From an uncultured Lentisphaerota bacterium (GTDB taxonomy: Bacteria; Verrucomicrobiota; Kiritimatiellia; CAIQIC01), in NCBI GenBank assembly GCA_903889245.1, contig CAISWQ010000047.1:51546-115545 (forward strand): a stretch of DNA of 64,000 nucleotides, read 5' to 3'. Of this stretch, positions 1,052-63,792 are shown in pieces. Both the position numbers and the translations under genes were made by a program. Within the stretch, counting starts at the first letter, position 1; each line of letters begins with the position of its first letter. The notes below the pieces were generated by a model. The model was not told the origin of the DNA. It did not search any database and worked only from the letters and a program-made list of their open reading frames with translations.

Positions 1052-2815
<1,764 letters not shown>

Positions 2816-2874
2816 AAATGACAGGCGAAAACTACTCTTTTGCCCGGCGGAGTCAAGGCCCAGCGCGACGGGAG

Positions 2875-7971: not shown

Positions 7972-8115
7972 TTTCCAGGGATTGGAACGGCGAACCGCCG
8001 GTTTTTCCGGGGATTGGAAAAAGTCGCGGGAAAATTTCCAAGCCTTGGAAAAACCCAGCCGGACTTCTTCCAAGCCTTGGAAAAAACCGGCGCAACTTTT
8101 CCAAGCCTTGGAAAA
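7972..8115. repeat. Array of 5 palindrome copies, period 31-32 bp
   Basis: TTGGAA half-sites start at 7982, 8014, 8045, 8077 and 8108; spacers are non-identical. Confidence 0.92.
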
Positions 8116-8169
8116 CGGCGGGGAATATAGCGGGTTGCCCCACGTCCCGCCAGTCAAAGCTGTGCCCGG

Positions 8170-9474
8170 TCAGGCAAAGTCTTCGATCCGCAGCCGGACG
8201 GTCGGCGCTCCGACGATGTCGAGTTGGTCAATCGCCGCCAGCGCCTGTTGGAAGGCTTGCTCCGGAGCCTCGTGTGTGACAATCACGACGGGGACGTGGT
8301 TGCCAATGGAGGATTCCTTCTGCATGACGGAGGCGATGCTGATTTGATGGGCGCCAAGTAGCTGGGCGACGCGGGCTAGCATGCCGGGCTTGTCGAGCAG
8401 GGCGAGGCGCAGGTAACAGCGCACCAACTCCGCGCCGGTCGCCTGCGCATGCAGGCCGGCCGAAGCCTGGCCTGGTAGTGCGAGCGGGTGGCTCGCGCCG
8501 GCGGCGCGGTCGCGGGCGACATCGGCGAGGTCGCTCAAGACCGCGCTGGCCGTCGCCTGGCGACCGGCCCCGCGGCCGAAGTACAGGGTCTGGCCGACAA
8601 GATCGCCCTCGATCAAGATGGCATTGAAGACGCCATCCACGGCAGCGAGCATGTGCTGCAACGGCACGAGGGTGGGGTGGACACGGACGGAAACGCCGCT
8701 GGCGCCGCGCTTGACGATGCCGAGCAGCTTGATGCGGTACCCCATTTCGAGCGCGTCGGTGATGTCCTCGGCGGCGAGGCCGCGGATGCCTTCGATATGC
8801 GCGGCTGCCAGCGGAACGGTGCTGCCGTAAGCCAGGCTCGCCAGGACGATGGCTTTATGCGCGGTGTCGTGCCCGTCAATGTCGAGACTCGGTTCGGCCT
8901 CGGCATAGCCGGCGGCCTGGGCGGCTTTCAGCACGGCGTCGAAGGGCAACTTCTCGCGTTCCATGCGGGTGAGGATGTAGTTGCAGGTGCCGTTGAGAAT
9001 GCCGTAGATGCTCTTGATGTGGTTGGCGACGAGCCCTTCGCGCAGGGCCTTGATGACCGGGATGCCGCCGCCGACGCTGGCCTCGAAATGGATCGGCGCA
9101 CCGGCCGCGGCCGAGGCGGAAAAAATCTCCGTTCCGTACTCGGCCAGCAGTTTCTTATTGGCGGTGACAACCGGTTTGCCGAGTTTCAACGCTTCCAGCA
9201 CAAACTTCTTCGCCATCCCCGTACCGCCAATGAGTTCAACGACCACATCCACGTTGGGGTCACGTACCACAGCCTCGGCATCGCGGGTCAATAAGGCCCG
9301 TTCCACCGTCACACCACGGTCGGTGTCCAGGTCGAGGTCGGCAATCTTGCGGAGCACCAGTTTGACGCCGAGACGTTCGGCCAGCAGGGCCCCGTTGCGT
9401 TGCAGTCCTTCCACCACGCCTGCGCCCGCCGTGCCGAAGCCGAGCAAACCGATACCGAGTTCTTTCGTTTTCAT
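8170..9474 (-). CDS. hom: Homoserine dehydrogenase with ACT domain
   Basis: GLLGFGTAG Rossmann motif, VVTANK, FEASVGGGIP, GILNGTCNYIL, DIDGHDTAHK; ATG 9474 (MKTKELG) chosen as start. Confidence 0.93.
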   Translation of the reverse strand: MKTKELGIGLLGFGTAGAGVVEGLQRNGALLAERLGVKLVLRKIADLDLDTDRGVTVERALLTRDAEAVVRDPNVDVVVELIGGTGMAKKFVLEALKLGKPVVTANKKLLAEYGTEIFSASAAAGAPIHFEASVGGGIPVIKALREGLVANHIKSIYGILNGTCNYILTRMEREKLPFDAVLKAAQAAGYAEAEPSLDIDGHDTAHKAIVLASLAYGSTVPLAAAHIEGIRGLAAEDITDALEMGYRIKLLGIVKRGASGVSVRVHPTLVPLQHMLAAVDGVFNAILIEGDLVGQTLYFGRGAGRQATASAVLSDLADVARDRAAGASHPLALPGQASAGLHAQATGAELVRCYLRLALLDKPGMLARVAQLLGAHQISIASVMQKESSIGNHVPVVIVTHEAPEQAFQQALAAIDQLDIVGAPTVRLRIEDFA

Positions 9475-9697
9475 GGTTCGATGTGGCGCAAAGATAGAAC
9501 AATGCTTCGGAGTTACAAGCCAAATGGATGTCCACCATATTTTGTGGGCCATTGCCGGAGCACCACAAGACACGCATTCCAAGGATTGAGATGCGCAAAC
9601 AGAAATGAGAACAGCAGGGTGCCCTTGGGGATGGCACTAATAAATTGTCTTGGTTGTTTTAATAATTTTCCTTGGAAAACCGGCGGACTGGTACGGC

Positions 9698-9713
9698 TGG
9701 CATATGTCCTGCT
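9698..9713 (+). promoter_or_regulatory. Putative sigma-54 promoter (-24/-12)
   Basis: TGGCATATGTCCTGCT has GG-N10-GC spacing, 24 bp upstream of ATG 9738. Confidence 0.55.
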
Positions 9714-9737
9714 AAGTGAAAACCAGCGGGGAAACAT

Positions 9738-9992
9738 ATGAATATCGCACAGACAGTGGAGCAGTTGGCGGCGGCCCAGAAACCGGTGCAAGCTTGGTCG
9801 CCGCAACAGGGCGTGTTGGTGCCGCCTCCCAAGCTGCGACGCGATCCGAGTTCGGCTGCCTCGGTGGTGGTGGCGCTATGTTTCATGTGTCTGTTTATCG
9901 GGGTAATCATCTTCACGTCCTACGCGGATCGTACGGCCAAGAGCAAGCCGCGGGAGCCGGCGCGTAATATGCCGATGGTTCATCTGCGTTGA
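9738..9992 (+). CDS. Small single-pass membrane protein of unknown function
   Basis: RBS-like GGGGAA, one hydrophobic helix (VVVALCFMCLFIGVIIF), own promoter and terminator. Confidence 0.6.
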   Translation: MNIAQTVEQLAAAQKPVQAWSPQQGVLVPPPKLRRDPSSAASVVVALCFMCLFIGVIIFTSYADRTAKSKPREPARNMPMVHLR

Positions 9993-10021
9993 TTTCTATG
10001 CGACTGTACACGTGTCGCGAC

Positions 10022-10051
10022 GAAGGCCGGAAGTTCCGGCCTTCGTTTGTT
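10022..10051 (+). terminator. Intrinsic terminator
   Basis: GAAGGCCGGAA-G-TTCCGGCCTTC followed by GTTTGTT. Confidence 0.7.
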
Positions 10052-10134
10052 GTTAAGCCTGCCCCAGTATGCCTGCCTGTCGTGTTGGGAAAAGCAGGCG
10101 TGTTATTTCAACGGATTCGTGCTCTCTTACCCGC

Positions 10135-10971
10135 GTGATTGATCTGCATACCCATTCGACCTGCTCCGACGGCTCGCTGACTCCCGGCGAGCTGGCGACT
10201 ATGGCTGCCGCGCAAAAATTGGACGCTGTGGCGTTGACCGATCACGACACGACAGCTGGGGTGGAGCTTTTTCTGGATGCCGCGCAGGCGGCGGGGATGC
10301 GCGGCATCGCCGGCATCGAGATCAGTGCCGAGCATCATCCAGGTGCGATGCACATGCTCGGTTACTTCCTCGACCCCACGCATACCGGTTTGCAGAAGGA
10401 CCTGGCCCGCCTGCGGCAGGGACGCACCGAACGCAACCGCCTGATCTTGGACAAACTCCGCACCTTGGGGCTGGAATTGACCTGGGATGAAGTACACGCG
10501 CTGGCGGGTGGCGATGTGGTCGGTCGTCCACACTTTGCGCAAGCCTTGATCAAGCGCGGCCATGTCAAGGACAAGAACGAAGCCTTCGCTAGGTTTCTGG
10601 CGCGCGGTCGCCCTGCCTACGCCGAACGCCTGCGACTCTTGCCTGCTGATTCCATACGCATGATTCGCGACGCTGGTGGCGTGCCCGTCCTCGCGCACCC
10701 CTGCTCGCTCAAGCTCGGTCAGAAACACCTGCGCGCCTTGCTGCTGGACTTGCGTGCGGCCGGGTTGGAGGGGCTTGAGGTCTATCACAGCGAACATAAT
10801 CCCAGCCAGACGCGGCTCTATCAGCGCCTCGCCACCGAGCTGGGGCTGGCCTTGACGGGCGGCTCGGATTTTCATGGCGCGCTGATGCCGGACATCCAGC
10901 TCGGCCGCGGTTTTGGCGGCTTGTGTGTCCCGGCCGACCTGCTGCCTAAGCTCGAAGCTCGCCGGCCCTGA
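10135..10971 (+). CDS. PHP-domain phosphoesterase (TrpH/YciV-like)
   Basis: IDLHTHSTCSDG, ALTDHDT, GIEIS, VLAHP, TGGSDFHG; GTG 10135 is the likely start. Confidence 0.88.
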   Translation: MIDLHTHSTCSDGSLTPGELATMAAAQKLDAVALTDHDTTAGVELFLDAAQAAGMRGIAGIEISAEHHPGAMHMLGYFLDPTHTGLQKDLARLRQGRTERNRLILDKLRTLGLELTWDEVHALAGGDVVGRPHFAQALIKRGHVKDKNEAFARFLARGRPAYAERLRLLPADSIRMIRDAGGVPVLAHPCSLKLGQKHLRALLLDLRAAGLEGLEVYHSEHNPSQTRLYQRLATELGLALTGGSDFHGALMPDIQLGRGFGGLCVPADLLPKLEARRP

Positions 10972-20363: not shown

Positions 20364-20416
20364 GGCTGTGGGACCAGGTGGTCGCCAGCCATGCCCCTGC
20401 GCGGGAAGCGCCCGCC

Positions 20417-21331
20417 TTACTTTGTCTGGAGTTGGCCCTTGCCGGTTTCCACCACGGCGGTCGTGCCATCCTTGGCGACCGACTTGATGGTGAAGGCATA
20501 GCCGCCATCGGGCTTGAGCGTGAAGATGCCGATATGTTGCGTGCCGCCGTGGAAGCAGGCCGAGCCCGGGCCTGTGGCGTCATCCTTCTGATCCTTGGTC
20601 GGCGTCGCGCCGCCGGGGCCGATGACAAATTCTGTCACGCCCTGCGCGGTGTCGGCCGGCTGGCCCTCGGCAGTGAGCGCGGGAAAGCGCTCATAGACGT
20701 GGTTGTGCCCGCAGAACACCAATGCCGGGCCGTGTGCCTCCAGCGCCTGCCAGAGCGGCTTCATCTTCGGGTCGCCACAGTGCTTGGCGCGCGAGAAGAA
20801 CGGATAGTGCCAGTAGGCGATCACCGGTTTCTTCTTGTGCGCGGCGAGATCGCTCTTGAGCCACGCGAGTTGCTTGTTGCCGTTCTTTGCGTCGTGGAAG
20901 TTCACGCTATCGAGGCTGACGATGTGCCAGCCGCCGAGGTCGAAGCTGTAGTACATCTCCGGCGCGTGCGCGCGCTCGCCCCAGTAGGTTTGGTAGGCGC
21001 TGAACGCCGGCTTGGAGTAGCCATCGTGATTGCCGGGGCAGGGGAAGATCAGCTTCAGGAAGCGGTCATAGGTTCCGCCGAGGACTTCCTTGTATTTTTC
21101 CAGCGGCGTGGTCTTGCCGTTGCAGGTATCGCCGACGAGGAGCACGGCGTCGAGCGGCTGCTGCGCGAGGATGGCATCGGAGACGACCTTGGCGTCGGGC
21201 GTGTAGATGTCGCCGGTAACGGCGATGGTGACACCCTCGGCCGCGACGAGCCGCAGCGAGAGCGCCAACGAGGCGAGCACCAGCAGCGCCGCGCGCCGCG
21301 TCATTTGAAACGGAGACAGAGATGTTTTCAT
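20417..21331 (-). CDS. Exported calcineurin-like metallophosphoesterase
   Basis: TGD, LVGD, PGNHD, HYPFFS, FCGHNHVYER; start at 21331 or 21304. Confidence 0.85.
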   Translation of the reverse strand: MKTSLSPFQMTRRAALLVLASLALSLRLVAAEGVTIAVTGDIYTPDAKVVSDAILAQQPLDAVLLVGDTCNGKTTPLEKYKEVLGGTYDRFLKLIFPCPGNHDGYSKPAFSAYQTYWGERAHAPEMYYSFDLGGWHIVSLDSVNFHDAKNGNKQLAWLKSDLAAHKKKPVIAYWHYPFFSRAKHCGDPKMKPLWQALEAHGPALVFCGHNHVYERFPALTAEGQPADTAQGVTEFVIGPGGATPTKDQKDDATGPGSACFHGGTQHIGIFTLKPDGGYAFTIKSVAKDGTTAVVETGKGQLQTK

Positions 21332-21368
21332 GCGCGGCATTGTCCCGCTGCCCCGCTGTCCGTCAAGC

Positions 21369-21481
21369 TTTTCCAAGGATTGGAAACGGGAACCGCTGGT
21401 TTTTCCAGGGATTGGAGAATCTCACCGATAACTTTCCAGGGTCTGGAAAATTTCATCAGAATTTTTCCAAGGCTTGGAAAA
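21369..21481. repeat. Array of 4 palindrome copies
   Basis: Right half-sites at 21380, 21412, 21443 and 21474. Confidence 0.9.
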
Positions 21482-21490
21482 CGCTGTGCG

Positions 21491-22996
21491 TCACAGCACG
21501 CGGCCGGCGCGGATGACCTGCTGGTACCAGCGGAAGCTCTGCTTCGGGATGCGCTGCTGGGTTTTGTAGTCCACGTAGGTGATGCCGAAGCGCGTGTTAT
21601 AGCCGTAGCTCCACTCGAAGTTGTCCATCAGGCTCCAGAGGAAGTAGCCGATCAGCGGGTAGCCTTCCGCGATGGCGCGCGAAGCGTTGCGCAGGTAGCT
21701 GCGCAGGTACATCACGCGGTCGAGGTCGAACACCTCGCCGTTCTTGGTCACCACGTCCTCGGAGGCGCAGCCGTTCTCGCTGATGTAGATGGGCAGCTCC
21801 TTCTTGCCGAGCGCGTCGGTGACGAGGCGGACGCCCCAGTAGAGCGCCTCGGGCACGCAACTCAACCAGTCGGTGTGCATGTGCGGGTAGCCCTTGGGCA
21901 GCGGCAGGGTTTCGTAGCCGCGCGCGTTCTGCGCCGCGCGGACGTAGGAACCGCAATAGTTGTTGAAGCCGAGCGCGTCGAGCGGCTGGCCGATGGTCGC
22001 CATGTCGCCGGGTTGCACGTCGGCGGCGTCGGGGCCGAGCTTCTCGATGGCCTGCGGGTTGTAGGCGCCGGTCAGGATCGGCACGAGCACGGTGCCGTTG
22101 TGCTCCTCGGCGACGAACGCCTTCTTGGCCGCCTCGATGTTCTCCGGCGTCTCGACCACGGGAATATAGGAGTCGAAATTGACGACGGTGGAGACGTGCG
22201 CGTCCTTCGACGCGGCGCGGATCGCCTGGCAGCTCATGCCGTGCGCGAGCAGCGCGTGGTGGACCGTCTGCAACACCTCCTTGCGCTTCTGGACGATCGT
22301 GCCGGGCGCGTGCTTGGGCACCTTGCCGACGCCGTAGCCCATGAAGGTGAAGCAGAAGATTTCGTTGATGGTCATCCAGTGCTTGAGCTTGTCGCCAAGG
22401 CGCGAGACGACGGCGGTGGTGTAGTCGGCGAAGTCCCTGGCGATTTCGCGGCTGCGCCACGAGCCGTATTTGTCCTCGAGCGCCTGCGGGCTGTCCCAGT
22501 GGAAGAGCGTCGCGTGCGGCGTGATGCCGTGGTCGAGCAGTTCATCCACGAGCCGCTTGTAGAAATCCATGCCCTTCTCGTTGACCGCGCCGCGGCCTTC
22601 CGGCACGACGCGCGGCCAGGAGATGCTGAAGCGGTAGTGCTTGATGCCGAGCTCGACCATCAGCTTCACATCCTCCTTGTAGAGGTGATAGTGATCATTG
22701 GCGACGTCGCCGGTATCGCCGTTCTGGACGCGGCCGGGGGTGCGGCAGAAGGTATCCCACACGCTCGGCTTGCGGCCGTCCGCGTTGGCCGCGCCTTCGA
22801 CCTGATAGGAGGCGGTTGCCGCGCCCCACCAGAAGTTCTTGGGAAAGCTGCCGGCATCCACCAATACGCGCGGGAGGGCCTGGCTGGTGCGCGGCGCGCC
22901 GGCGAGGCCGCCCGCGGCCAGCGCCGCCAGCGTGCCGGAGGAGGCGCCAAAGAAAGCGCGGCGGTTCAACGGTCCAAGCTGTCCGATCTTTTTCAT
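21491..22996 (-). CDS. GH1 beta-glucosidase with Tat signal peptide
   Basis: FWWGAATASYQVEGA, YRFSISWPR, TINE acid/base, ISENG nucleophile, WSLMDNFEW; NRRAFFG Tat motif; ATG 22996 follows an AAGGAG RBS. Confidence 0.92.
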   Translation of the reverse strand: MKKIGQLGPLNRRAFFGASSGTLAALAAGGLAGAPRTSQALPRVLVDAGSFPKNFWWGAATASYQVEGAANADGRKPSVWDTFCRTPGRVQNGDTGDVANDHYHLYKEDVKLMVELGIKHYRFSISWPRVVPEGRGAVNEKGMDFYKRLVDELLDHGITPHATLFHWDSPQALEDKYGSWRSREIARDFADYTTAVVSRLGDKLKHWMTINEIFCFTFMGYGVGKVPKHAPGTIVQKRKEVLQTVHHALLAHGMSCQAIRAASKDAHVSTVVNFDSYIPVVETPENIEAAKKAFVAEEHNGTVLVPILTGAYNPQAIEKLGPDAADVQPGDMATIGQPLDALGFNNYCGSYVRAAQNARGYETLPLPKGYPHMHTDWLSCVPEALYWGVRLVTDALGKKELPIYISENGCASEDVVTKNGEVFDLDRVMYLRSYLRNASRAIAEGYPLIGYFLWSLMDNFEWSYGYNTRFGITYVDYKTQQRIPKQSFRWYQQVIRAGRVL

Positions 22997-23138
22997 GGTG
23001 AACTCCTTCACAGGTGGTCGGGCCGGAGCTTAGCCAGCGCCTCCGCCGTGGGCAAGCCCGCAGCAAAAGGCTGGCGGGGGTGGGGCGCGGCGGCTAGAGT
23101 CACGGCGCGTGGCCGGCGTGGCTGCGCGGAGGTGGAGC

Positions 23139-23408
23139 ATGAGCGAAGTGCTGCAGGATATCGGGTGGGCGATCGTGTTCGCGTTCGTCGGTGGACTCGT
23201 TGGCCTCGTCTTGGTAATGCTCGCGGCGGCGCTGCTGCCGCGGTTGATCGGGCGGTTCACGCCGCAGCTTGACGAGGAGAAGGAGATCGCGCGCGGCAAC
23301 GTGGCGGTCGGCCAGTACTTCGGCCGCGTCGTGGGCGCGAGCATCCTCGGCGTCAGCCTCATCATTGCCGCTGCCGTGCTCGGCGGCATCCTCGCGGCGC
23401 TGCACTGA
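23139..23408 (+). CDS. Small two-TM membrane protein, DUF350 (YjfL-like)
   Basis: Two hydrophobic helices flanking TPQLDEEKEIARGNVAVG; GGAG RBS; ends 2 bp before the Hint-Tim44 gene. Confidence 0.7.
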   Translation: MSEVLQDIGWAIVFAFVGGLVGLVLVMLAAALLPRLIGRFTPQLDEEKEIARGNVAVGQYFGRVVGASILGVSLIIAAAVLGGILAALH

Positions 23409-23410
23409 CC

Positions 23411-25975
23411 ATGAAAAGGGTTTTCGCGCTCGCGCTGCTGGGCTGGCTCGGCCTGGCGGCGGAAGCCCGCGCCCGCGGCGGCGGGGGCTGCCTCGAAGCC
23501 GGCACCGGCATCTTGACACCGGCCGGGGAAATGCCTGTCGAGCAACTCCGACGCGGCGACGCCGTCATCGGCCTGCGCGACGGGCAGAGATTCCGCACGA
23601 CAGTCGCCGATGTCTTCGTCATTCATCCTGCGGAGTTCATCGAGATCACCGCCCACGGTCGGCTGCTCCGGTTGACACCGGAACATCCGGTCGCCATCGG
23701 TGAGGGTGAATTCCTCGCGGCGGAAAAGTTGCCCGGTGCCCACCGGGTTGCCGCGACGAAACCCGCTTTCAACCTGCTCGTCACCGAGGGCGGCGTCTTC
23801 TTTGCCAACGGCGTGCTGGTACACAACAAGGGCTGCTTTCTACCGGATACCGCCATCCTGCGGGCCGATGGCAACCGCGTGCTCATCAGCGCGGTGCAAC
23901 CCGGCGAACGCCTGCTGGCGTTCGACTCCGCTAATCGCCTGGTCACGGCGACGGTGGCCGAGGTCATTACGCACGCGGCGACGGAATTTGTCGTGCTCGC
24001 CACCGAGCGGGCGCAGGTACGCGTGACGGCGGAACATCCTTTTTTCATTGGTGATGGCCGCTTCAAGACCGTCGAGGCTCTGCGCCTTGGCGATGAAGTC
24101 TTCCTCTGCGATGAGCAGGGACTGCAACCGCAGCGCATCACGAGCATCGAGCGGGTGCAATCACCCGTCCGCGTTTTCAATCTGCGCACCGATGCGCCCC
24201 ACACCTTCTTCGCCAATGCGTTTGCCGTGCACAACAAGGGTGGCGGTTGTTTTCCGGCTGGGACGCGCATCGCGACGCCATCGGCTGATCGCGTCATTGA
24301 GCAGTTGGAACCGGGCGCGGCGGTGCTGGCGGTGGAGGAGTCCGGGTTGTGCGTGACCTCGGCCGTGCGCCGGATTTTCCGGCAGCGCGACGCCATCCTC
24401 ACCTTGCATACCGATCGCGGCGATCTGGGCACCACGGCCGAGCATCCGCTGCGCTTGTTTGCCGGCGGTTTCCGGCCGGCGGGCGAACTCGGCGCTGGCG
24501 CAAAGCTGACGGTGGTTCAGCACGGCCGGCTGGTCTCCGCGACGGTGCTCGGCGCGCAGCAGGGTGCTGCTGCGGTCGAGGTGTTCAACCTGGAGGTGGG
24601 GGCGCCGCATACCTTCATCGCCGATGGCTTCGTGGCGCACAACAAGGGCGGTGGCGGCAGCCGGGGCGGCGGCTTTCGGAGCAGCAGTCGCAACCATTCC
24701 GGCGGCGGCAAAGGTTCGGATAATCCGGTGCCGGGGCTGATCGCCTTTGGCTTCTTTATCCTGGTCTGCATCCTCATCATCCGCGCGGGGAAGCAGAAGC
24801 GCGAGGAGGAGAATCTCGATTTCGTCTATGCTCCCGGCAAGACCGCCGCGAAGGTGGCGCAGACGCGCAAGCTGCTGGAGTTCCTCGCGCGGCAGGATGA
24901 GGCGATGCAACCGGCGAAACTCGAGGCGGTGGTACGCGCGACCTTCCTCAAGTTGCAGGAGTGCTGGCAGGCGCGCGAGTATGCCCCGATGCAGCCGCTG
25001 CTGATGCGCGACCTCTTCCTGGACCACAACCGCCAGCTCGCCGGCCTGCAGCGCAACCACGAGATCAACATGATCGCCGATCTGAAGGTGGAGCGACTGG
25101 AGGTGGTACTCGTGCGCTATCCGCAGAAGCCCGACCAGCGCGAGTTCACCGCGCTCATCACGGCCAGCGCCAGGGATTTCTACGTGGACGACCGCAGCCT
25201 GAAGTTCCTGCGTGGCGATCAATCTCCGGCCGAGTTCCAGGAATTCTGGACTTTCCACCGTCAGGGTGACGCGTGGCTGCTGCGCGAGATCGAGCAGTCG
25301 CGCGAGTCCGGCGCGCTCAAGCAGGAGAACTTCGTCGAGCAGTTCACCGACGCGCAACTGCGCCAGATCTACGGCGGGGACGAACCTGCGCTGGGGCCAG
25401 CCGGGCCGTGGCTGGACAAGCCCGTGGAGAGCAAGGCGACCAAGATCGAACGGATGCTGAACTTCCTGGCGCAGACCGACAAGCTGTGGGAACAGCGCGC
25501 GATGGAGCAGCGCGTCCGGCAGGTCTTCACCGCGGTCAAGCTGGCCGAGGAAACCGGCGACGCGGCCGCCGTGCGCGGCGACCTGTTCCCCGATGCTGCC
25601 GCGCATCTGGCAGAGCAGCTCACGGCGCAGCGGCAACAGGGACTCACCCCCGAATATCGCAACCTCTGCGTGCGCAAGGTGGAGTTGATTCTGGTGCGCA
25701 ACCGCGCCGGCGCGGCCGCGGACGAGTTCACCGCGCGCATCAGCGCGCACGCGCAGCAGCTTGTCCGGCGCGCCGATGGCTCTGCAATCGCGCGCGACGA
25801 CTATGTCAAACCCTTCGTCGAGTTCTGGACCTTCGGCCGGCTCGACCAGGTCTGGAAACTCAAGGAAGTCCTGCCTGCGGCCAGTGGGGAAAGTGCGCTG
25901 GCCGCGGAGAATGTGGACGAGGACAGCAACGCGGCACAACTCCGTTGGTATTACACGAAGAAGCGCGCCACCTGA
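23411..25975 (+). CDS. Exported membrane protein: signal peptide, 3 tandem Hint (bacterial intein-like) domains, Gly-rich linker, TM helix, 2 Tim44-like domains
   Basis: Hints at 23489-23827, 23834-24235 and 24248-24643; each starts with Cys (CLEAG, CFLPD, CFPAG), has TxEHP block B and ends VHN/AHN. The C-terminal repeats end EFWTFHR..WLL and EFWTFGR..WKL. Confidence 0.88.
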   Translation: MKRVFALALLGWLGLAAEARARGGGGCLEAGTGILTPAGEMPVEQLRRGDAVIGLRDGQRFRTTVADVFVIHPAEFIEITAHGRLLRLTPEHPVAIGEGEFLAAEKLPGAHRVAATKPAFNLLVTEGGVFFANGVLVHNKGCFLPDTAILRADGNRVLISAVQPGERLLAFDSANRLVTATVAEVITHAATEFVVLATERAQVRVTAEHPFFIGDGRFKTVEALRLGDEVFLCDEQGLQPQRITSIERVQSPVRVFNLRTDAPHTFFANAFAVHNKGGGCFPAGTRIATPSADRVIEQLEPGAAVLAVEESGLCVTSAVRRIFRQRDAILTLHTDRGDLGTTAEHPLRLFAGGFRPAGELGAGAKLTVVQHGRLVSATVLGAQQGAAAVEVFNLEVGAPHTFIADGFVAHNKGGGGSRGGGFRSSSRNHSGGGKGSDNPVPGLIAFGFFILVCILIIRAGKQKREEENLDFVYAPGKTAAKVAQTRKLLEFLARQDEAMQPAKLEAVVRATFLKLQECWQAREYAPMQPLLMRDLFLDHNRQLAGLQRNHEINMIADLKVERLEVVLVRYPQKPDQREFTALITASARDFYVDDRSLKFLRGDQSPAEFQEFWTFHRQGDAWLLREIEQSRESGALKQENFVEQFTDAQLRQIYGGDEPALGPAGPWLDKPVESKATKIERMLNFLAQTDKLWEQRAMEQRVRQVFTAVKLAEETGDAAAVRGDLFPDAAAHLAEQLTAQRQQGLTPEYRNLCVRKVELILVRNRAGAAADEFTARISAHAQQLVRRADGSAIARDDYVKPFVEFWTFGRLDQVWKLKEVLPAASGESALAAENVDEDSNAAQLRWYYTKKRAT

Positions 25976-26159
25976 CAGGTGTTGCGCGGTGAAACTGTCA
26001 TCGGGCTTGACACGTACCAGTCCCTCATAAGAATGAGCGCCATGTTTCACGGCCGTCATGTCAGGGCAGGCTTATGCAGGCCGATACCCGTCCCGGTCCT
26101 GGCAAGGGATCTGGATTGGACGATAGACAGGTGGCCCATAGTGAAAACAAGAGGGCGAA

Positions 26160-27689
26160 ATGAACGGAGACCAACAGACCCGCTGTTTTGATAACGAAAA
26201 ATATCTGGCCGAGCAAACCAAGGCGATTCTGAACCGCGTCAGCCGGTTCGATAATAAACTCTATCTGGAGTTTGGCGGGAAAATCGTCTTTGACTTGCAC
26301 GCCGCGCGCGTGCTGCCCGGTTTCGACCCCAACGTCAAGATGCGGCTGCTCCACCAGTTGCGCGACAAGGTGGAGATCGTGCTCTGCATCTATGCCGGCG
26401 ACATTGAGAGCCGGAAGATGCGGGCGGACTTTGGCATCTCCTATGATGCCGATGCCTTCAAATTGATTGATGATTTGCGCGAGTGGGGGCTGGAGGTTTC
26501 GGCGGTGGTGATCACGCGTTTCACGGGGCAACCCGGCGCCGCCGGTTTCAAAACCAAGCTCGAACGGAGAGGCGTCCGGGTCTATACCCACGGTCCGATT
26601 GCCGGTTACCCGACGGATGTGGAGCGCATTGTCAGCGAGCAGGGTTTTGGGGGTAATCCTTACATTGAGACCACCCGCCCGTTGGTGGTCGTCACGGCAC
26701 CTGGGCCGAACAGCGGCAAGCTCGCCACCTGTCTCTCACAGGTGTATCACGAGCACTGCCGCGGCACCCATGCCGGCTATGCCAAGTTCGAGACGTTCCC
26801 CATCTGGAGCCTGCCGTTGCGCCACCCGGTCAATGCGGCCTACGAGGCGGCGACGGCGGAACTCAAGGATGTGAACATGATTGATCCGTTTCACCTGGAG
26901 GCCTACGGTGAGCGGGCGATCAATTATAACCGCGATGTCGAGGCTTTTCCCGTGCTGCGCCGTATCCTTAGCCGCATCACCGGTACGGCGGACCTCTATC
27001 AGTCGCCGACCGACATGGGGGTCAACCGGGCCGGCTTTGCCATTATTGATGATGCGCAGGCGGTCAGGGCGGGCCAACAGGAAATCATCCGCCGTTATTT
27101 CCGTTACCAGTGTGAGTATGCAGTGGGCACACTTGATCAAGAGCCTGTCCACCGCATCACCCGGTTGCTGGAGGAGTTCAGCATCCGGCCCGAAGACCGG
27201 CCCGTCGTGGAACCGGCCCGACATGCGGCCGCCGCGGCGGAGCAGCGGACGGAGAAGGGCAGCTTCGGCGTGTATTGCGGAGCAGCCCTCCAGTTGCGTG
27301 ACGGAGCCATCCTGACCGGCAGCAATTCGCCGCTGATGCACGCCGCGCCCAGTATGGTGCTCAATGCCATCAAGCACCTGGCCGGCATTCCTCATCATCT
27401 GCCCTTGCTGAGCCCCAACATCGTCGAGGCGGTCGCCAACCTGAAGAAGGACATCTTCCGCCGCAAGGCCATCAGTCTGGACTTGGAGGAGACCTTCATC
27501 GCCTTGAGCATTAGCTCTACTTCCAATCCAGCCGCCCGCGCCGCCATGGATCATCTCGTGGACCTGCATGGTTGCGAAGTCCACCTCACCCATTTGCCCA
27601 CACCGGGCGATGAGGCGGGCTTGCGGCGGTTGGGGGTCAACCTGACCTGCGATCCGCACTTCGCCACGAATAAGCTATTCGTGAGTTGA
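26160..27689 (+). CDS. DUF1846 family protein
   Basis: KLYLEFGGK, HAARVLPGFDPNVK, APGPNSGKLATCLSQ, YAKFETFP, SPTDMGVN. Confidence 0.85.
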   Translation: MNGDQQTRCFDNEKYLAEQTKAILNRVSRFDNKLYLEFGGKIVFDLHAARVLPGFDPNVKMRLLHQLRDKVEIVLCIYAGDIESRKMRADFGISYDADAFKLIDDLREWGLEVSAVVITRFTGQPGAAGFKTKLERRGVRVYTHGPIAGYPTDVERIVSEQGFGGNPYIETTRPLVVVTAPGPNSGKLATCLSQVYHEHCRGTHAGYAKFETFPIWSLPLRHPVNAAYEAATAELKDVNMIDPFHLEAYGERAINYNRDVEAFPVLRRILSRITGTADLYQSPTDMGVNRAGFAIIDDAQAVRAGQQEIIRRYFRYQCEYAVGTLDQEPVHRITRLLEEFSIRPEDRPVVEPARHAAAAAEQRTEKGSFGVYCGAALQLRDGAILTGSNSPLMHAAPSMVLNAIKHLAGIPHHLPLLSPNIVEAVANLKKDIFRRKAISLDLEETFIALSISSTSNPAARAAMDHLVDLHGCEVHLTHLPTPGDEAGLRRLGVNLTCDPHFATNKLFVS

Positions 27690-34199: not shown

Positions 34200-37127
34200 T
34201 CATCTTCCGGCTTGCGTGGCGACTTGCGGGCCGAGGCGCTGCTGGCGCGGGGTATAGTCGGGCCAGAGCGGGCAGTTCAGGTCGATCCAGCATTTCAGCG
34301 CGTGCATCTCGTCGCGCGTGAGCTGCACGCCGTGGTGGCCGGCGTCGAGCGTCTGCCAGAGCTTGCTCTTGAGCGTGCCAAACGTGAGCGGTTCGGCCTT
34401 CGCGTGGCGCAGGCGGTAGGTCATGTCGAAGTAGTGCACCCAGCCGCCGGCGATCAGCGTGCGGTAGGAGGCGGGGACCTTCTCGGCATCGAGCGTGCCG
34501 GCGAGGTTGAGCTTCTGCTTGTGGTTCGCGTCGTGGCAGCGCACACACCGCGCATCGAGCACCGGCTGCACGACGCGCTCGAAGCTGAACGGCACCGCGC
34601 CCCACGGCGGCGGCGCGAGCGTCGCTGGCGCGCACCGCGCAGCGAGGGTGGGGGCGACCGGCGCCGCGCCATGCCGGTGTTCGTGGCAGCCGATGCAGCT
34701 CCGCCGCTCGCCCGGCTGGAGCTGCACGACGCTGCGCATCCGCTGCAGCTCGTTCAGGTTTTCGTCGAGTGCCTCGAAGTAGAGGACCTTGCCGGCGGGC
34801 GCGGTGAAATTCGCCGAGCCATCGGCGGCGACTGGCGCGAGGCCGAGCGCCGCCTTCGCCACGTAGCTCGGCCAGCCGCCAGGCCCGCTGACCTTGTGGA
34901 TCGGCGTGGCATAAAAATCGGTGAACACCGGCCCGTGGTCGCGGCGAAACTCGCCGCTCGGCAGTTGCTCGAGGTTGGCGCGGACCTCCTCGCAGACGCG
35001 AATGAATTTCACGCGGCCGCGCGCAACGGCGGGCGCGAGGCCCTGATACACATCGGCCACGGTGAACTGCCCGAACTCCGTCGCCGCGGGTACGGCCGCG
35101 CCGAGCACCGGCGGACGCGGCACCTGGCGCAGCAGCGTCGGCGTCATACTGCCGATGTTCGGGTCGAGATAGAGCAACTCGCGGTTGCCCCAGCGGTCGG
35201 CGAGGAACAGGCCCCAGCGGTCGGCGGGCGCGTGGCTGGCGAGGAAGTAGTCGCGCGTGACCGGCACCGGATCGCGCCAGCATTCCTGCCGCGGCCAGCT
35301 CATGTTGTAGTGCGCCACGGTGTCCGGCGTGATGTTCAGCAGCGCGTTCGTGTCCGCCGGCGACTGCGCTCGCGCGAGGTCAATCAGGCCGAGCGGTCCG
35401 TTGTGGTCGCCGCCGTGCGAGAAGATGGTGCAGAGGATTTCGCGCGTGCCGGGCACCTCGCGGCCGTTGATGTAGCAGTTCGGCGTATCGTTGCCGAAGA
35501 CCAGCTCCGGGTGCGTGCCGTCGGGCCGGATCGCCCAGAGCGTGTGGCCGAAGTCCGCGCCCTTGTCGATGTATTCCGACCGCGTCCAGAGGATGCGCCC
35601 GTCGCGCATCACCGCCGGCGACCACTCGCTCAAGTTCGCGAACGAGAGCGGGCGGATGTCGCCGCTGGTCTCGCGGCGGAAGAGCACGAACGCCTGCGGC
35701 CGCCAGCACAGGAAGCGCGCGTGGCAGCGCGTGCTGATGAACGCAAGCGCGCCATCCGGAAGCGGGCACGGATAATAATCGTGGAACGGCCCCTCCGTGA
35801 GCTGGCGTGCGCGGCCGCCGCCGGAGTCCATTTCCATCAGGTGCCAGTAGGGCTCCTGCTCGCCGGGCCGTGGCGCGCTGGGGCGGAAGGCGAAGAAGAT
35901 TTTCTGCGCGTCGAAATCAGCCATCGCGTCGCGCGCGATGCCCGCGCTCGCGTCGAACAACGTCGCCAGCCGCGCGCCGGCCGGATCGAGCGCGCCCCCG
36001 CGCCGCGGCAGCTCCAGCACGCAGACGCCGCCGCCCGGCTTGAACTGCGAGTCCAGCACGTCGCTGTAGTTGTGCGACGAAAGGTAGGGATGCCGCTTCA
36101 CAAACAGGATGCGCTGCAACGACGCGAGGTCGGGGTCGGTGAAGAGCCACCGGCGCTTCGCCAGGCGCGCGTCGAGAAAGAGCGCCTCGCTGTCGCCCGC
36201 CGCCAGCCGCTGCTTCAGCCCCGCCAGTTCCGCACGACCGGCCGCGACCTCCACGCCCTTCTCCGCCAGCCGCGCGAGCAACTCGGCCAGTTGCGTCAGC
36301 GCGCGCTCTGTGGGCGTGAGGCGCGCGATGGCGCTCCAATAGGGGATCTCCTTCTTCAGCGGCGAGAGATGATCGGTCGCGTTCATCCGCTGCCACGTGG
36401 CGCGCTCGCACAGGAACGCGTAGCGCACGAGGCTCTCGTAGCTCGTCGGCTCCGGCAGCGGCACGATCGGCGGGCGCGGCACGGCGCGCGGCCCGCCCGC
36501 GAACCCTGCGTTCAGCGCCGCCACCTTGCGCCACGCCTTGCCATCGCCGGAGAGCTGCACCTCGATATTCATCGGCACGCGGTCGTGGAATTTCCCCTCG
36601 CGGTCACGCGAGAAGACGACCTTCGCGACCTGCGCCGGCTGCGGCAGCTCGATTTGCGCCCACTCATCGCCGGCCGACGCCGCAATCCAGCTATGCCCGT
36701 TCCCATACAGCCCATCGTTGAGGTGCGCCACCTGATGGATCGCGTAGCCCGCGAGGCATGAGGACGCCGAAGCCTTCGCGCCCGCACCCGCCAGCGCGAG
36801 GTTGCGCTTGCCATCGGCTCCGAAGATTTCCAGCTCATCAAGGCACGCCTGCCCCGCACTGCTTGCATGAATGACGAACCGCACGAACTTCGCCGGCTGC
36901 GCCGCAAAGCTAACCACATTCGCCGCCTCCGCCCGCACCACCACTTGCGTCGGTGCCGCGAAAGCTTCCAGAGCTTGGAAAACCAACAACCCCAAAATTC
37001 CAGCCGAGCTTGCGAGACAGGCCGTCTTGCTGCCAACCATTGGAAAAGTTAAGCATGAAATTTTCCAGGCCCTGGAAAATCCTGCCGGATTTTTCCCAAG
37101 CCTTGGAGCCTGGATACGTGCGTTCAT
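34200..37127 (-). CDS. Secreted discoidin (F5/8 type C) + beta-propeller + HzsA-like middle domain + di-heme cytochrome c protein
   Basis: HLNDGLYGNGHSW discoidin-like segment; YTRSEYIDK-type propeller motif (WTRSEYIDK); ADGSANFTAPAGKVLYFEALDEN..QRMRS..QPGERRSCIGCHE; second CVRCH motif. Confidence 0.7.
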   Translation of the reverse strand: MNARIQAPRLGKNPAGFSRAWKISCLTFPMVGSKTACLASSAGILGLLVFQALEAFAAPTQVVVRAEAANVVSFAAQPAKFVRFVIHASSAGQACLDELEIFGADGKRNLALAGAGAKASASSCLAGYAIHQVAHLNDGLYGNGHSWIAASAGDEWAQIELPQPAQVAKVVFSRDREGKFHDRVPMNIEVQLSGDGKAWRKVAALNAGFAGGPRAVPRPPIVPLPEPTSYESLVRYAFLCERATWQRMNATDHLSPLKKEIPYWSAIARLTPTERALTQLAELLARLAEKGVEVAAGRAELAGLKQRLAAGDSEALFLDARLAKRRWLFTDPDLASLQRILFVKRHPYLSSHNYSDVLDSQFKPGGGVCVLELPRRGGALDPAGARLATLFDASAGIARDAMADFDAQKIFFAFRPSAPRPGEQEPYWHLMEMDSGGGRARQLTEGPFHDYYPCPLPDGALAFISTRCHARFLCWRPQAFVLFRRETSGDIRPLSFANLSEWSPAVMRDGRILWTRSEYIDKGADFGHTLWAIRPDGTHPELVFGNDTPNCYINGREVPGTREILCTIFSHGGDHNGPLGLIDLARAQSPADTNALLNITPDTVAHYNMSWPRQECWRDPVPVTRDYFLASHAPADRWGLFLADRWGNRELLYLDPNIGSMTPTLLRQVPRPPVLGAAVPAATEFGQFTVADVYQGLAPAVARGRVKFIRVCEEVRANLEQLPSGEFRRDHGPVFTDFYATPIHKVSGPGGWPSYVAKAALGLAPVAADGSANFTAPAGKVLYFEALDENLNELQRMRSVVQLQPGERRSCIGCHEHRHGAAPVAPTLAARCAPATLAPPPWGAVPFSFERVVQPVLDARCVRCHDANHKQKLNLAGTLDAEKVPASYRTLIAGGWVHYFDMTYRLRHAKAEPLTFGTLKSKLWQTLDAGHHGVQLTRDEMHALKCWIDLNCPLWPDYTPRQQRLGPQVATQAGR
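36966..37107. repeat. Four palindrome copies within the signal-peptide coding region; cassette nearly identical to 32484-32628
   Basis: Right half-sites at 36975, 37040, 37072 and 37103; shared AAAATTCCAGCCGAGCTTGCGAGAC..CTTGCTGCCAACCATTGGAAAAGT. Confidence 0.85.
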
Positions 37128-37154
37128 GGCATGCACCTATTTTGTTCGCCGAGA

Positions 37155-62253: not shown

Positions 62254-62348
62254 GCGGTCACTACAGCGCAGCAGGGGTGGTTCGTCAAGGCGGAGATTTC
62301 CCCGCTTGCTTTTTCGGGGTGGACGGCTACTCTCTGCCGCGACGAAGC

Positions 62349-62504
62349 GTGTCTTCGGGGCAAGGTGAGGGCCGGCGGTCACTAGCGCCGGCGCAATTCC
62401 TGACCGGCGGTTTAGCCCGCGAGTCCCGCCCGAGCGGCAGGACTGACACGGCGCTCCCGAAAGGGATCCGTGGCCGACAGTAAAGTCTGGATGGAAGAAG
62501 GCAC
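62349..62504 (+). promoter_or_regulatory. FMN riboswitch with hairpin insertions
   Basis: GTGTCTTCGGGGCAAGGTGA..AATTCCTGACCGGCGGT..AGCCCGCGAG..GCCGACAGTAAAGTCTGGATGGAAGAAGGCAC, upstream of ribBA. Confidence 0.92.
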
Positions 62505-62528
62505 ACTCCGCCGGATGTCCGGCTGTGC

Positions 62529-62562
62529 GGCCCCGAAGGTTTTTCTTCGGGGCCTTTTATTT
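62529..62562 (+). terminator. Intrinsic terminator of the FMN riboswitch
   Basis: GGCCCCGAAG-GTTTTT-CTTCGGGGCC-TTTTATTT; the left arm is also complementary to aptamer 5' CTTCGGGGC, consistent with an antiterminator. Confidence 0.85.
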
Positions 62563-63792
62563 GTGAACACACGCAAGCACAAGACGGATTCCAAAACGGC
62601 CGCCTTCCGCGCGGTCGCGGAGGCGATCAAGGCCTACCGCCGCGGCGGGCTGGTCGTAGTGGCCGATGACGCGAAGCGCGAGAACGAGGGCGATATCATC
62701 TGCGCCGCGGCCAAGATCACGCCGGAAAAAATCAACTTCATGGCGCGCCACGGGCGCGGCCTGATCTGCGTGGCGCTGGAGGCCGAGCAGCTCGCGCGGC
62801 TGAACATCAAGCGCGCCACGTCGCGCGGCGGCGGCAAGTTCTGCACGGCGTTCACCGAGTCAGTGGACGCGGCGCACGGCATCACCACGGGCATCAGCGC
62901 CTATGACCGCGCGCACACCATCCGCCTGCTGGTCTCGGAAAGCTCCACGCCGGCCGATTTCGTTTCGCCGGGCCACCTGTTCCCGCTGGAGGCGGTCGCC
63001 GGCGGCGTGCTGCGGCGCGCGGGCCACACGGAGACCGCGGTGGACCTCGCCCGGCTCGCGGGGGTGAAGCCCGGCGGCGTCATCTGCGAGATCATGCGCG
63101 CCGATGGCCACATGGCGCGCTGGCCGGAGCTGCGCGCATTTGCCACGCGCCACAAGCTGCCGCTGATCACCGTGGCCGACCTGATCGCCTACCGCCGCCA
63201 GACCGAACGGCTGGTGGAGTGCGAGCGCGTGGTGCAACTGCCGACGGAGTTCGGCGAGTTCGAGCTGCACCTCTACCGCGAGCTGCTCACGAACCAGCAC
63301 CATCTCGCGCTCGTGCGCGGCGCGCCCGCGCAGCAGCCGGCGGCGCTGGTGCGCGTCCACAGCGAGTGCCTGACCGGCGACGTGCTCGGCTCGCAGCGGT
63401 GCGATTGCGGCCGGCAATTGCACGCGGCGCTGCGCGCGCTCGCGCGGGAGGGCCACGGCGTGCTGCTGTATATGCGGCAGGAGGGCCGCGGCATCGGGCT
63501 GGCCAACAAGATTCACGCCTACGCGTTGCAGGAGCGCGGGCTCGACACGGTCGAGGCGAACCAGCAGCTCGGCTTCGAGGCCGACCTGCGCGACTACGGC
63601 ATCGGCGCGCAGATTCTCGGCGATCTTGGTCTAAAAAAAATCCGGCTGATGACGAACAATCCGCGGAAGATCATCGGCTTGAGCGGCTACGGCCTGACCG
63701 TGACCGAGCGTGTGCCGCTGGTGCTGCCGCAGACCGAGCACAACCGGCGCTACCTGGAAACGAAGAAGAAAAAGCTGGGTCACTTGCTGTAA
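62563..63792 (+). CDS. ribBA: Bifunctional DHBP synthase / GTP cyclohydrolase II
   Basis: [53 protein letters not shown]. Confidence 0.95.

Follow-up and report, generated by a model that had tools for sequence, protein, structure and literature searches.

What would three tandem intein-like domains be doing in the exported part of a bacterial membrane protein? The question is raised by a locus in a 64,000-nucleotide stretch of DNA from an uncultured Lentisphaerota bacterium (the window; assembly GCA_903889245.1, contig CAISWQ010000047.1, positions 51,546 to 115,545 of the forward strand), where a small DUF350-family gene is followed by a gene for an 854-residue protein that joins three Hint domains to a predicted transmembrane helix and two Tim44-like domains. 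Self-cleavage, protein splicing and the conjugation of lipids or proteins are all reactions of Hint domains, which are widely used as tools in protein engineering. With moderate confidence, we read the locus as a conserved chromosomal two-gene inner-membrane module in which the Hint array serves as a self-removing periplasmic pro-region.

The identification of the domains is far beyond chance. Against Pfam, the whole protein matched Hint over three stretches (E 1.3e-18), Hint_2, PT-HINT and, over two stretches, Tim44 (E 5e-21), and intein N- and C-terminal splicing regions were matched in NCBIfam. When the units were scored alone, Hint1 reached 34.3 bits with Hint_2 (cutoff 28.4), and Hint2, the best conserved of the three, reached 37.2 bits with PT-HINT and 35.7 bits with Hint. 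The closest structure in a phmmer search of the PDB was the C. thermocellum bacterial intein-like (BIL) domain BIL4 (2LWY), which aligned over all of Hint2 (E 1.6e-8); the Mtu RecA mini-intein 2IN0 aligned across residues 280-411 of Hint3. Only Hint relatives were recovered by this search, and the Tim44 kinship needed Pfam and a separate fold search. A full-length AlphaFold2 model built on 80 homologues (mean predicted local distance difference test score, pLDDT, 80.5) has three beta-rich domains, a transmembrane helix at residues 440-467 and two alpha+beta domains, with the Gly linkers 276-279 and 413-437 disordered. In this model the Hints take the horseshoe beta fold of their superfamily at pLDDT ~80-96. 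Foldseek placed the Tetrahymena BUBL domain BIL2 (6TMM) first (E 1.5e-10) and 2LWY next (template-modelling score 0.86), followed by mini-inteins (Npu/Ssp DnaB, Mtu RecA) and the Hedgehog Hint (1AT0, 6TYY). The original prediction, made from the letters of the DNA, had seen in every Hint a first Cys, a block-B TxEH, a terminal His-Asn and a following Lys, with no endonuclease, and had recognised the pattern of type-A BIL domains. All of these residues are present in the three units, none of which has Cys, Ser or Thr at +1, and across the family the block-B Thr is 99% and the His 100% conserved. By sequence and predicted fold, the Hints are best classed as type-A BIL domains, a group reportedly described by Amitai in 2003 and Dassa in 2004. 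The profile searches (Hint, PT-HINT, Tim44, DUF350) and structure prediction that had been proposed as a check thus support the repeats as Hints, Hint3 marginally at 28.0 bits.

The C-terminal half was assigned in the same way. Against Pfam Tim44 (PF04280, cutoff 29.6), the first Tim44-like domain alone scored 40.1 bits and the second 47.0 bits, and both have the NTF2-like alpha+beta fold in a separate model of this half (pLDDT 82.7, predicted template-modelling score 0.71). Its Foldseek matches were the C-terminal domains of human and yeast Tim44 (2CW9, E 1.2e-6; 3QK9; 2FXT), the mitoribosomal protein mL45 and other NTF2-like membrane-associated domains. The C-terminal tail beyond them averages 55% identity to homologues, with E833, N834, D836, W846, Y847, Y848 and R852 invariant or near-invariant. 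The product of the upstream gene matched Pfam DUF350 (PF03994) at 28.9 bits (cutoff 26) over profile positions 77-133 of 133, one (the second) half of the model. Its two hydrophobic helices are predicted from hydropathy to span the membrane, as in a small polytopic membrane protein, and a charged loop, DEEKEIARGNxAVGxYFGR, is conserved in the homologue alignment. By analogy with Tim44 and mL45, the DUF350/double-Tim44 core may be a membrane-proximal adaptor or a lipid-binding scaffold.

The most distinctive property of the array lies at its junctions. For a census of junction residues, Hint units were located with a hidden Markov model (HMM) and not by motifs, which gave 557 full-length units in 268 proteins; positions -1, +1 and +2 lie outside the HMM. 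Position 1 was Cys in all units but one, which had Ser (556/557), and the terminal two residues were His-Asn throughout (557/557). The flanking residues were just as constant, with Gly at -1 in 555 of the 557 units and both Lys at +1 and Gly at +2 in every one. In a control set of 120 relatives of the C. thermocellum BIL, Cys1 and His-Asn were kept, whereas -1 was Ser, Lys or Thr, +1 was Ala in 89 of 99 and +2 was variable; a published BIL has Tyr at +1 (PMC4031507). Since the control differs at all three positions, the signature G/C...HN/K-G (slashes mark the ends of the Hint) is specific to the family, under a constraint equal to that on the catalytic residues. The fixation of Lys at +1 and of Gly at -1 and +2 in essentially every unit indicates that the junction chemistry itself is under selection. 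In type-A BILs a thioester forms at the N-terminus and Asn cyclisation cuts the C-terminus; most of the product is cleaved, and some is spliced via the freed amino group (PMC4031507). This known alpha-amine route leaves the fixed Lys unexplained. Three causes are possible, namely that the Lys is the nucleophile of an isopeptide bond, that it aids Asn cyclisation, or that the mature tail needs a basic first residue. Judged from conservation, the Lys would most simply be a participant in the reaction, either attacking the Gly thioester or catalysing the cyclisation.

Relatives without Hints point to how the array came to lie where it does. A search with residues 412-854 against 1.8 billion representative proteins returned 1061 relatives, among them Hint-less double-Tim44 proteins (for example entries P0198, P0201, P0210 and P0195) in which a signal peptide ending in ...AR is followed by GG, a Gly/Ser-rich stretch, a transmembrane helix and two Tim44 domains. 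The N-terminal region reads ...YA/RGGGGGGTGGGGGGGFGGG in P0198 (also quoted as ...YARGGGGGGTGGGGGGGFGGG), ...CARGG in P0201 and ...FARGGSYDGGGG in P0210, and one-Hint forms read ARAGGGGGGGG/CFPAGT. The original prediction stated that ordinary relatives start with a signal peptide and a Gly-rich 'AR(A/P)GGG' segment and that the Hints were inserted into this segment. The first claim is seen directly in P0198, P0201 and P0210. The second is borne out by the same proteins, because Hint-less relatives share the layout and one keeps the DUF350 partner, and on this comparison the Hints are inserts in a pre-existing Gly-rich tail, predicted to be periplasmic. DUF350 genes of 88-89 codons stand upstream of both the Hint-less P0201 and the one-Hint P0212, and the core module is therefore DUF350 together with a protein of signal peptide, Gly-rich tail, transmembrane helix and two Tim44 domains, the Hints being a variable addition. 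The more distant Hint-less P0198 and P0215 are without an upstream DUF350 gene. A tie of DUF350 specifically to the Hints was ruled out, as P0201 has the same upstream gene. A separate family of ~300 residues (P0230-P0261), with a signal peptide, 'AQAGRYIP...', a Gly-rich stretch, a transmembrane helix and a single Tim44 domain, seems to be a simpler relative of the double-Tim44 proteins.

The gene pair is conserved along with the architecture. In 73 of 80 related loci the next gene upstream, on the same strand, is a DUF350 orthologue (52-85% identity), and most of the seven loci without one end there, the sequence being cut off. With the same gene also preceding a Hint-less relative, the proposed two-gene module holds. 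In the window the ATG of the Hint/Tim44 gene is 2 nucleotides past the DUF350 stop codon, and the two genes are translationally coupled. A GTG at 23109 is a possible alternative DUF350 start; ATG 23139 was preferred because homologues have 88-92 residues and begin at the equivalent position. A scan for promoters and terminators over 22900-26300 found nothing convincing for the operon. In about 30 of the 80 loci a LemA-family gene (Pfam PF04011, E 1e-55) directly precedes DUF350, giving a three-gene unit, LemA-DUF350-Hint/Tim44. These loci belong mostly to Syntrophales, Desulfarculales and other deltaproteobacterial metagenome-assembled genomes (for example L011 6893-7480, L022 6828-7613 and L026 7026-7580). 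LemA, absent from the window, is the sole recurrent neighbour besides DUF350 in the 80 loci. The suggested tie of DUF350 to envelope-stress and polyamine-related neighbourhoods is stated in the literature, where DUF350 (YjfL) is known only from comparative genomics of PspA- and polyamine-linked operons (PMC11237479).

The family is not rare. A protein search gave 914 matches, the top 120 of which each carry both Hint and Tim44, and relatives turned up in at least 307 genomes from many phyla when one genome per species was scanned. The closest to the window protein, at 65-71% identity, come from Lentisphaerae and Kiritimatiellaeota, and the public protein collection holds a 100% identical entry, P0001. 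Others occur in Verrucomicrobiota, Planctomycetota, Syntrophales, Desulfarculales, Nitrospirota, Elusimicrobia, Terriglobia, Anaerolineales and Legionella. Legionella massiliensis LegA is a cultured carrier (NZ_CCVW01000002.1, L037 7713-10589), with a DUF350 gene and, at 8001-10589, a gene for an 862-residue protein of three Hints and two Tim44 domains. Its gene pair lies amid housekeeping genes, presumably between cca/orn/cation-efflux and hemXYDC-like genes as read from the N-terminal sequences of the neighbours. Plasmid and phage collections held no full-length relative, only isolated Hint matches in toxin genes. Searches of a literature library for Hint domains, inteins or BILs with Tim44, and for DUF350 with Tim44 or LemA, gave no description of the architecture. 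The statement in the original prediction that no described triple-Hint/Tim44/DUF350 system was known thus stands as far as the searched literature goes, but with carriers in at least 307 species the architecture is common and not a one-off.

Hint number ranges from 0 to 6 across the family. In the best 120 of the 914 proteins, 85 have four Hints and 28 have three, with a few having one, two, five or six, while three is the commonest number among 81 loci (the window and the 80 taken from the genome scan). The Hints of the window are 27-30% identical to one another and 41-54% identical to the same-position Hints of other phyla; paralogues within one protein of the family are 29-41% identical at median. 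By these identities the arrays are old, and same-position Hints are orthologous across phyla. Recent tandem amplification in the window was ruled out by the low identity of its Hints and by the absence of any DNA repeat in the array except a 53-nucleotide motif of block F/G and the junction, which returns at a spacing of 408 nucleotides with 60-77% identity. Recent duplications, with units 95-100% identical, are found in P0013, P0158, P0016 and P0105. The proposal of tandem amplification is thus upheld for the family, given copy numbers of 0 to 6 and near-identical units in some lineages, but not for the window, whose Hints are old paralogues. Units 96-100% identical in P0013 (1286 residues, six Hints) and P0158 (1132 residues, five Hints) indicate ongoing unit duplication, and the Hint1-Hint2 pair has been duplicated as a block in P0002, P0013, P0016, P0054 and P0105. 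Identity to homologues is 46-57% for the Hints against 59-65% for the Tim44 domains, and the Hints evolve under purifying selection at rates near those of the Tim44 domains. Hint1 of the window is ~19 residues shorter than most orthologues, the shortfall lying between blocks B and F.

The boundaries of the layout originally described (signal peptide, RGGGG, Hint1, KG, Hint2, KGGG, Hint3, tail, transmembrane helix, two Tim44 domains) match the translation of the open reading frame (ORF). The description of the protein as secreted does not hold. Based on the signal peptide and on the positive-inside rule (RAGKQKREEE follows the transmembrane helix), we infer a type-I inner-membrane protein with its Hints in the periplasm and its Tim44 domains in the cytoplasm. 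A lipoprotein reading of ...GGGG-Cys27 was set aside by eye, as Gly at -3 is unfit for a lipobox and Cys27 is the Cys1 that Hints conserve.

On the pro-region reading, three mini-Hints of the type-A BIL kind would have been inserted into an ancestral tail in which a basic residue and oligo-Gly followed the signal peptide. After Sec export, each Hint would fold in the periplasm and act once on itself. With help from the block-B Thr and His, an N-to-S acyl shift would link Cys1 to the Gly before it as a thioester; the terminal Asn, aided by the penultimate His, would cyclise and cut the chain before the invariant Lys. Single-turnover self-excision is to be expected because each Hint has all that is needed for the acyl shift at Gly/Cys and for Asn cyclisation before Lys. 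The Hints would be freed as domains of ~12-15 kDa (predicted 12.1, 14.8 and 13.7 kDa), either by plain cleavage at both ends or with ligation of the tiny exteins to RGGGG-KG-KGGG-KGGGG.... By either route a mature membrane protein of ~50 kDa would be left of the ~91 kDa full-length chain; the Gly/Ser/Arg-rich tail would form its N-terminus once Hint3 was released, starting KGGGG... if unligated. Such a cationic oligo-Gly tail would resemble the native Arg-oligoGly tail of the Hint-less relatives.

Several points weigh against this reading. Hint3 alone scores 28.0 bits with Hint_2, 0.4 bits under the cutoff (E 3e-6), and cleavage is deduced from conserved residues. In aerobes Cys1 could be blocked by the oxidising conditions of the periplasm. 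Topology and signal-peptide cleavage were assessed by eye, and if the peptide stayed uncleaved, the N-extein of Hint1 would be a membrane anchor and the products would differ. Moreover, position-specific Hint paralogues have been kept across phyla, although a low-complexity tail should tolerate their loss. Since they persist in a tail tolerant of deletion, the array seems to do more than pass through, which suggests that the precursor or the released Hints have an extra role beyond removal. A timed or redox-gated maturation step would be one possibility.

The strictness of the junction gives rise to an alternative. The idea that it marks a new bacterial splicing chemistry, in which the epsilon-amine of Lys+1 replaces Cys, Ser or Thr and either joins the flanks by an isopeptide bond or lets the oligo-Gly thioester pass to an external amine of the envelope, is a tentative one that we regard as possible but doubtful. 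By analogy, such chemistry would parallel, in the bacterial periplasm, the ATP-independent conjugation that BILs drive in Tetrahymena BUBL, and the array might serve the DUF350/Tim44 module as a regulated device for maturation or ligation that works only once. In the concrete form in which the Lys epsilon-amine attacks the Gly thioester, so that the flanks are spliced by a Gly-(epsilon)Lys bond or the thioester is handed to an amine of another molecule (a second tail, a lipid head group, peptidoglycan or a polyamine), the array would be more than a pro-region, namely a ligation device used stoichiometrically; this form we consider rather improbable. It would account for a Lys that is as invariant as the catalytic residues and peculiar to this family (other type-A BILs mostly have Ala at +1), for a -1 Gly that is the least hindered acyl donor, and for a shortest extein, KG, that consists of exactly the two fixed residues. 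The alpha-amine route of type-A BILs requires no particular side chain (PMC4031507), BUBL BIL2, the best fold match, is reported to form an isopeptide between a Lys epsilon-amine and a C-terminus (PMC8616854), and DUF350 genes elsewhere stand in polyamine-related operons (PMC11237479). Yet the transferable cargo (RGGGG, KG, KGGG) is trivial, which makes an intermolecular ligase look wasteful, and the Lys could be fixed instead for tuning Asn cyclisation or for a basic mature N-terminus like the Arg-Gly-Gly of the Hint-less relatives.

The remaining explanations fare less well. If the Hints were selfish or neutral passengers, BIL-type elements in a permissive tail kept only because each must excise itself and adding nothing to the module, the chemistry would be identical to that of the pro-region, and a Hint number of 0 to 6, near-identical new copies in some lineages and Hint-less relatives with the same partner gene would be natural. 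We think this unlikely, given that there is no homing endonuclease, that no copies were found on plasmids or phages, and that same-position Hints are orthologous across phyla and nearly as conserved as the Tim44 domains; imprecise deletion would be harmless in a disordered tail, so useless inserts should decay, yet a single unit of 557 deviates at Cys1, and that to Ser. A non-catalytic array, with the Hints staying attached as a binding or spacer module reaching, for example, the cell wall or outer membrane, would suit the three well-folded beads on flexible Gly linkers of the AlphaFold2 model, and some domains of the Hint superfamily have lost activity. Retention of Cys1, the block-B Thr and His, His-Asn and the junction residues in essentially every unit is unexpected for a structural role, and makes this very improbable. 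Least credible of all, to the point of being nearly negligible, is a PT-HINT polymorphic toxin releasing a C-terminal toxin, the automatic name of several database records ('polymorphic toxin-type HINT domain-containing protein' on some homologues at NCBI), for all that Pfam PT-HINT matches. The C-terminal part is a conserved transmembrane helix and two Tim44 domains and not a variable toxin, the only conserved neighbours are DUF350 and LemA with no adjacent immunity-like gene, and the flanks in Legionella are housekeeping genes. A polymorphic toxin or defence system was ruled out on these grounds, together with the lack of a PADLOC match and of full-length plasmid or phage relatives.

Comparison with known systems places the module among, but apart from, its relatives. 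With type-A BILs the Hints share a mini-Hint fold of ~130-140 residues, Cys1, TxxH, His-Asn, the lack of Cys, Ser or Thr at +1 and of an endonuclease, and a location in exported parts of bacterial proteins. Known BILs occur where non-conserved proteins are hypervariable (PMC7765530), and most often one copy precedes a C-terminal domain that varies, whereas here ordered arrays with position orthology occupy a fixed site in a conserved family of at least 307 species, with exteins of 2-4 residues and invariant Gly(-1) and Lys-Gly(+1,+2). Class 1 mini-inteins (Npu/Ssp DnaB, Mtu RecA) are alike in fold and in catalytic blocks A, B and G, but the present Hints have Lys at +1, sit in tandem copies and occupy a disordered Gly-rich site instead of the conserved site of an essential enzyme. 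Hedgehog proteins also have a Hint in the secretory pathway that cuts at Gly/Cys-Phe; Hint2 and Hint3 begin G/CF, and the Hedgehog-type Pfam Hint model matches three stretches of the protein. Unlike Hedgehog, the array has no sterol-recognition region, its block G carries the His-Asn that Hedgehog is without, and its N-extein is a few glycines and not a signalling domain. To our knowledge, Tetrahymena BUBL (BIL2, PDB 6TMM/6Y75) is the only described system with several BILs on one polypeptide. There too the thioester forms on a C-terminal Gly, and the reported acceptor is a Lys amine, giving an isopeptide (PMC8616854). BUBL is eukaryotic and cytosolic with whole ubiquitin-like domains as cargo, whereas the present exteins, KG and KGGG, carry no such cargo, and the array is placed in the bacterial periplasm and fused to a membrane protein. 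The Tim44 half resembles the Tim44 C-terminal domain, mL45 (Mba1) and COG4395 in being membrane-anchored on the cytoplasmic (matrix-equivalent) side, as predicted by the positive-inside rule, and differs in its duplicated domain, own transmembrane tether and DUF350 partner and in having no J-protein/Hsp70 or ribosome context. DUF350/YjfL operons likewise contain a small polytopic membrane protein in an envelope-related setting (PMC11237479), but the protein here is half-size (two transmembrane helices, 89 residues), has no PspA, CesT, spermidine-synthase or ATP-grasp neighbours, and is partnered by a double-Tim44 protein, sometimes with LemA.

Three features are new: tandem BIL-type Hints in ordered arrays whose exteins can be as short as KG, junctions (Gly, then Lys-Gly) that vary no more than the catalytic residues, and a fixed Hint site in the predicted periplasmic tail of a conserved and widespread DUF350 plus double-Tim44 inner-membrane module. 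Should Lys+1 prove to be the nucleophile, bacteria would have an intein relative that forms isopeptide bonds naturally, which would be a new class of mechanism and perhaps a new ligation tool; should the Hints merely cut themselves out, the family would offer a clean natural system for side-chain-free BIL processing. It also gives access to what bacterial Tim44-like and DUF350 proteins do. As the cultured L. massiliensis LegA carries the module, the question is directly testable in a practical experimental host.

Table 1. Features of the DUF350-Hint/Tim44 locus; positions are those of the window, and aa denotes amino acid residues of the 854-residue protein
Feature	Position	Strand	Basis or remark
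DUF350-family small membrane protein gene, 89 aa, ATG start	23139..23408	+	ORF list and Pfam
Gene for Hint x3/transmembrane/Tim44 x2 protein, 854 aa	23411..25975	+	Span includes stop codon
Sec-type signal peptide, aa 1-21 (MKR, hydrophobic core, A-R-A), MKRVFALALLGWLGLAAEARA	23411..23473	+	Read by eye; model helix aa 2-14
RGGGG, N-extein of Hint1, aa 22-26	23474..23488	+	Identical in 79/79 aligned homologues
Hint1, aa 27-139, 113 aa; Cys27, T89xxH92, H138-N139	23489..23827	+	Hint_2 34.3 bits; model
Two-residue extein Lys140-Gly141	23828..23833	+	Both columns invariant
Hint2, aa 142-275, 134 aa; Cys142, T206xxH209, H274-N275	23834..24235	+	2LWY match; Pfam
Four-residue extein Lys276-Gly-Gly-Gly279	24236..24247	+	Sequence, alignment, junction census
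Hint3, aa 280-411, 132 aa; Cys280, T342xxH345, H410-N411	24248..24643	+	Hint_2 28.0 bits; 2IN0 alignment; model
Gly/Ser/Arg-rich tail, predicted periplasmic, KGGGGSRGGGFRSSSRNHSGGGKGSDNPVPG, aa 412-440, pI 11.7	24644..24730	+	pLDDT <50 for aa 413-437
Transmembrane helix, aa ~441-462, then RAGKQKREEE	24731..24796	+	Hydropathy; model helix aa 440-467
Tim44-like domain 1, aa ~493-629	24887..25297	+	Pfam Tim44 40.1 bits; model pLDDT ~90
Tim44-like domain 2, aa 688-819	25472..25867	+	Pfam Tim44 47.0 bits; Foldseek
Conserved C-terminal tail, aa 821-854 (...ENVDEDSxxxQLxWYYxxxRA)	25871..25972	+	Homologue alignment

Around the module, the window encodes a GH1 glycosidase, a metallophosphoesterase, a DUF1846 protein and a PAS protein, none of them a conserved neighbour in related loci. 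Two long ORFs, 20378-23272 (+, 964 residues) and 24161-26059 (-, 632 residues), overlap real genes in another frame or on the opposite strand and were set aside as shadow ORFs of 65% GC DNA because the real genes there have strong family matches. The DUF1846 (UPF0371) family protein is encoded directly downstream of the module at 26160-27689 (+; Pfam E 2e-162). Farther away, a large ORF at 34200-37136 (-) has Pfam matches to HZS_alpha (a hydrazine-synthase alpha-like beta-propeller) and, weakly, to F5/8 type C, which is unusual for a PVC-group heterotroph. A thiamine pyrophosphate (TPP) riboswitch (Rfam RF00059, 60.1 bits) at 2728-2817 (-) lies upstream of a 541-residue ORF at 1052-2677 (-), presumably a gene for thiamine biosynthesis or transport. 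Near the other end of the window, a flavin mononucleotide (FMN) riboswitch (Rfam RF00050, 81.4 bits) at 62347-62506 (+) lies just before or overlaps the start of an ORF at 62470-63792 (+), whose true start codon is probably further downstream.

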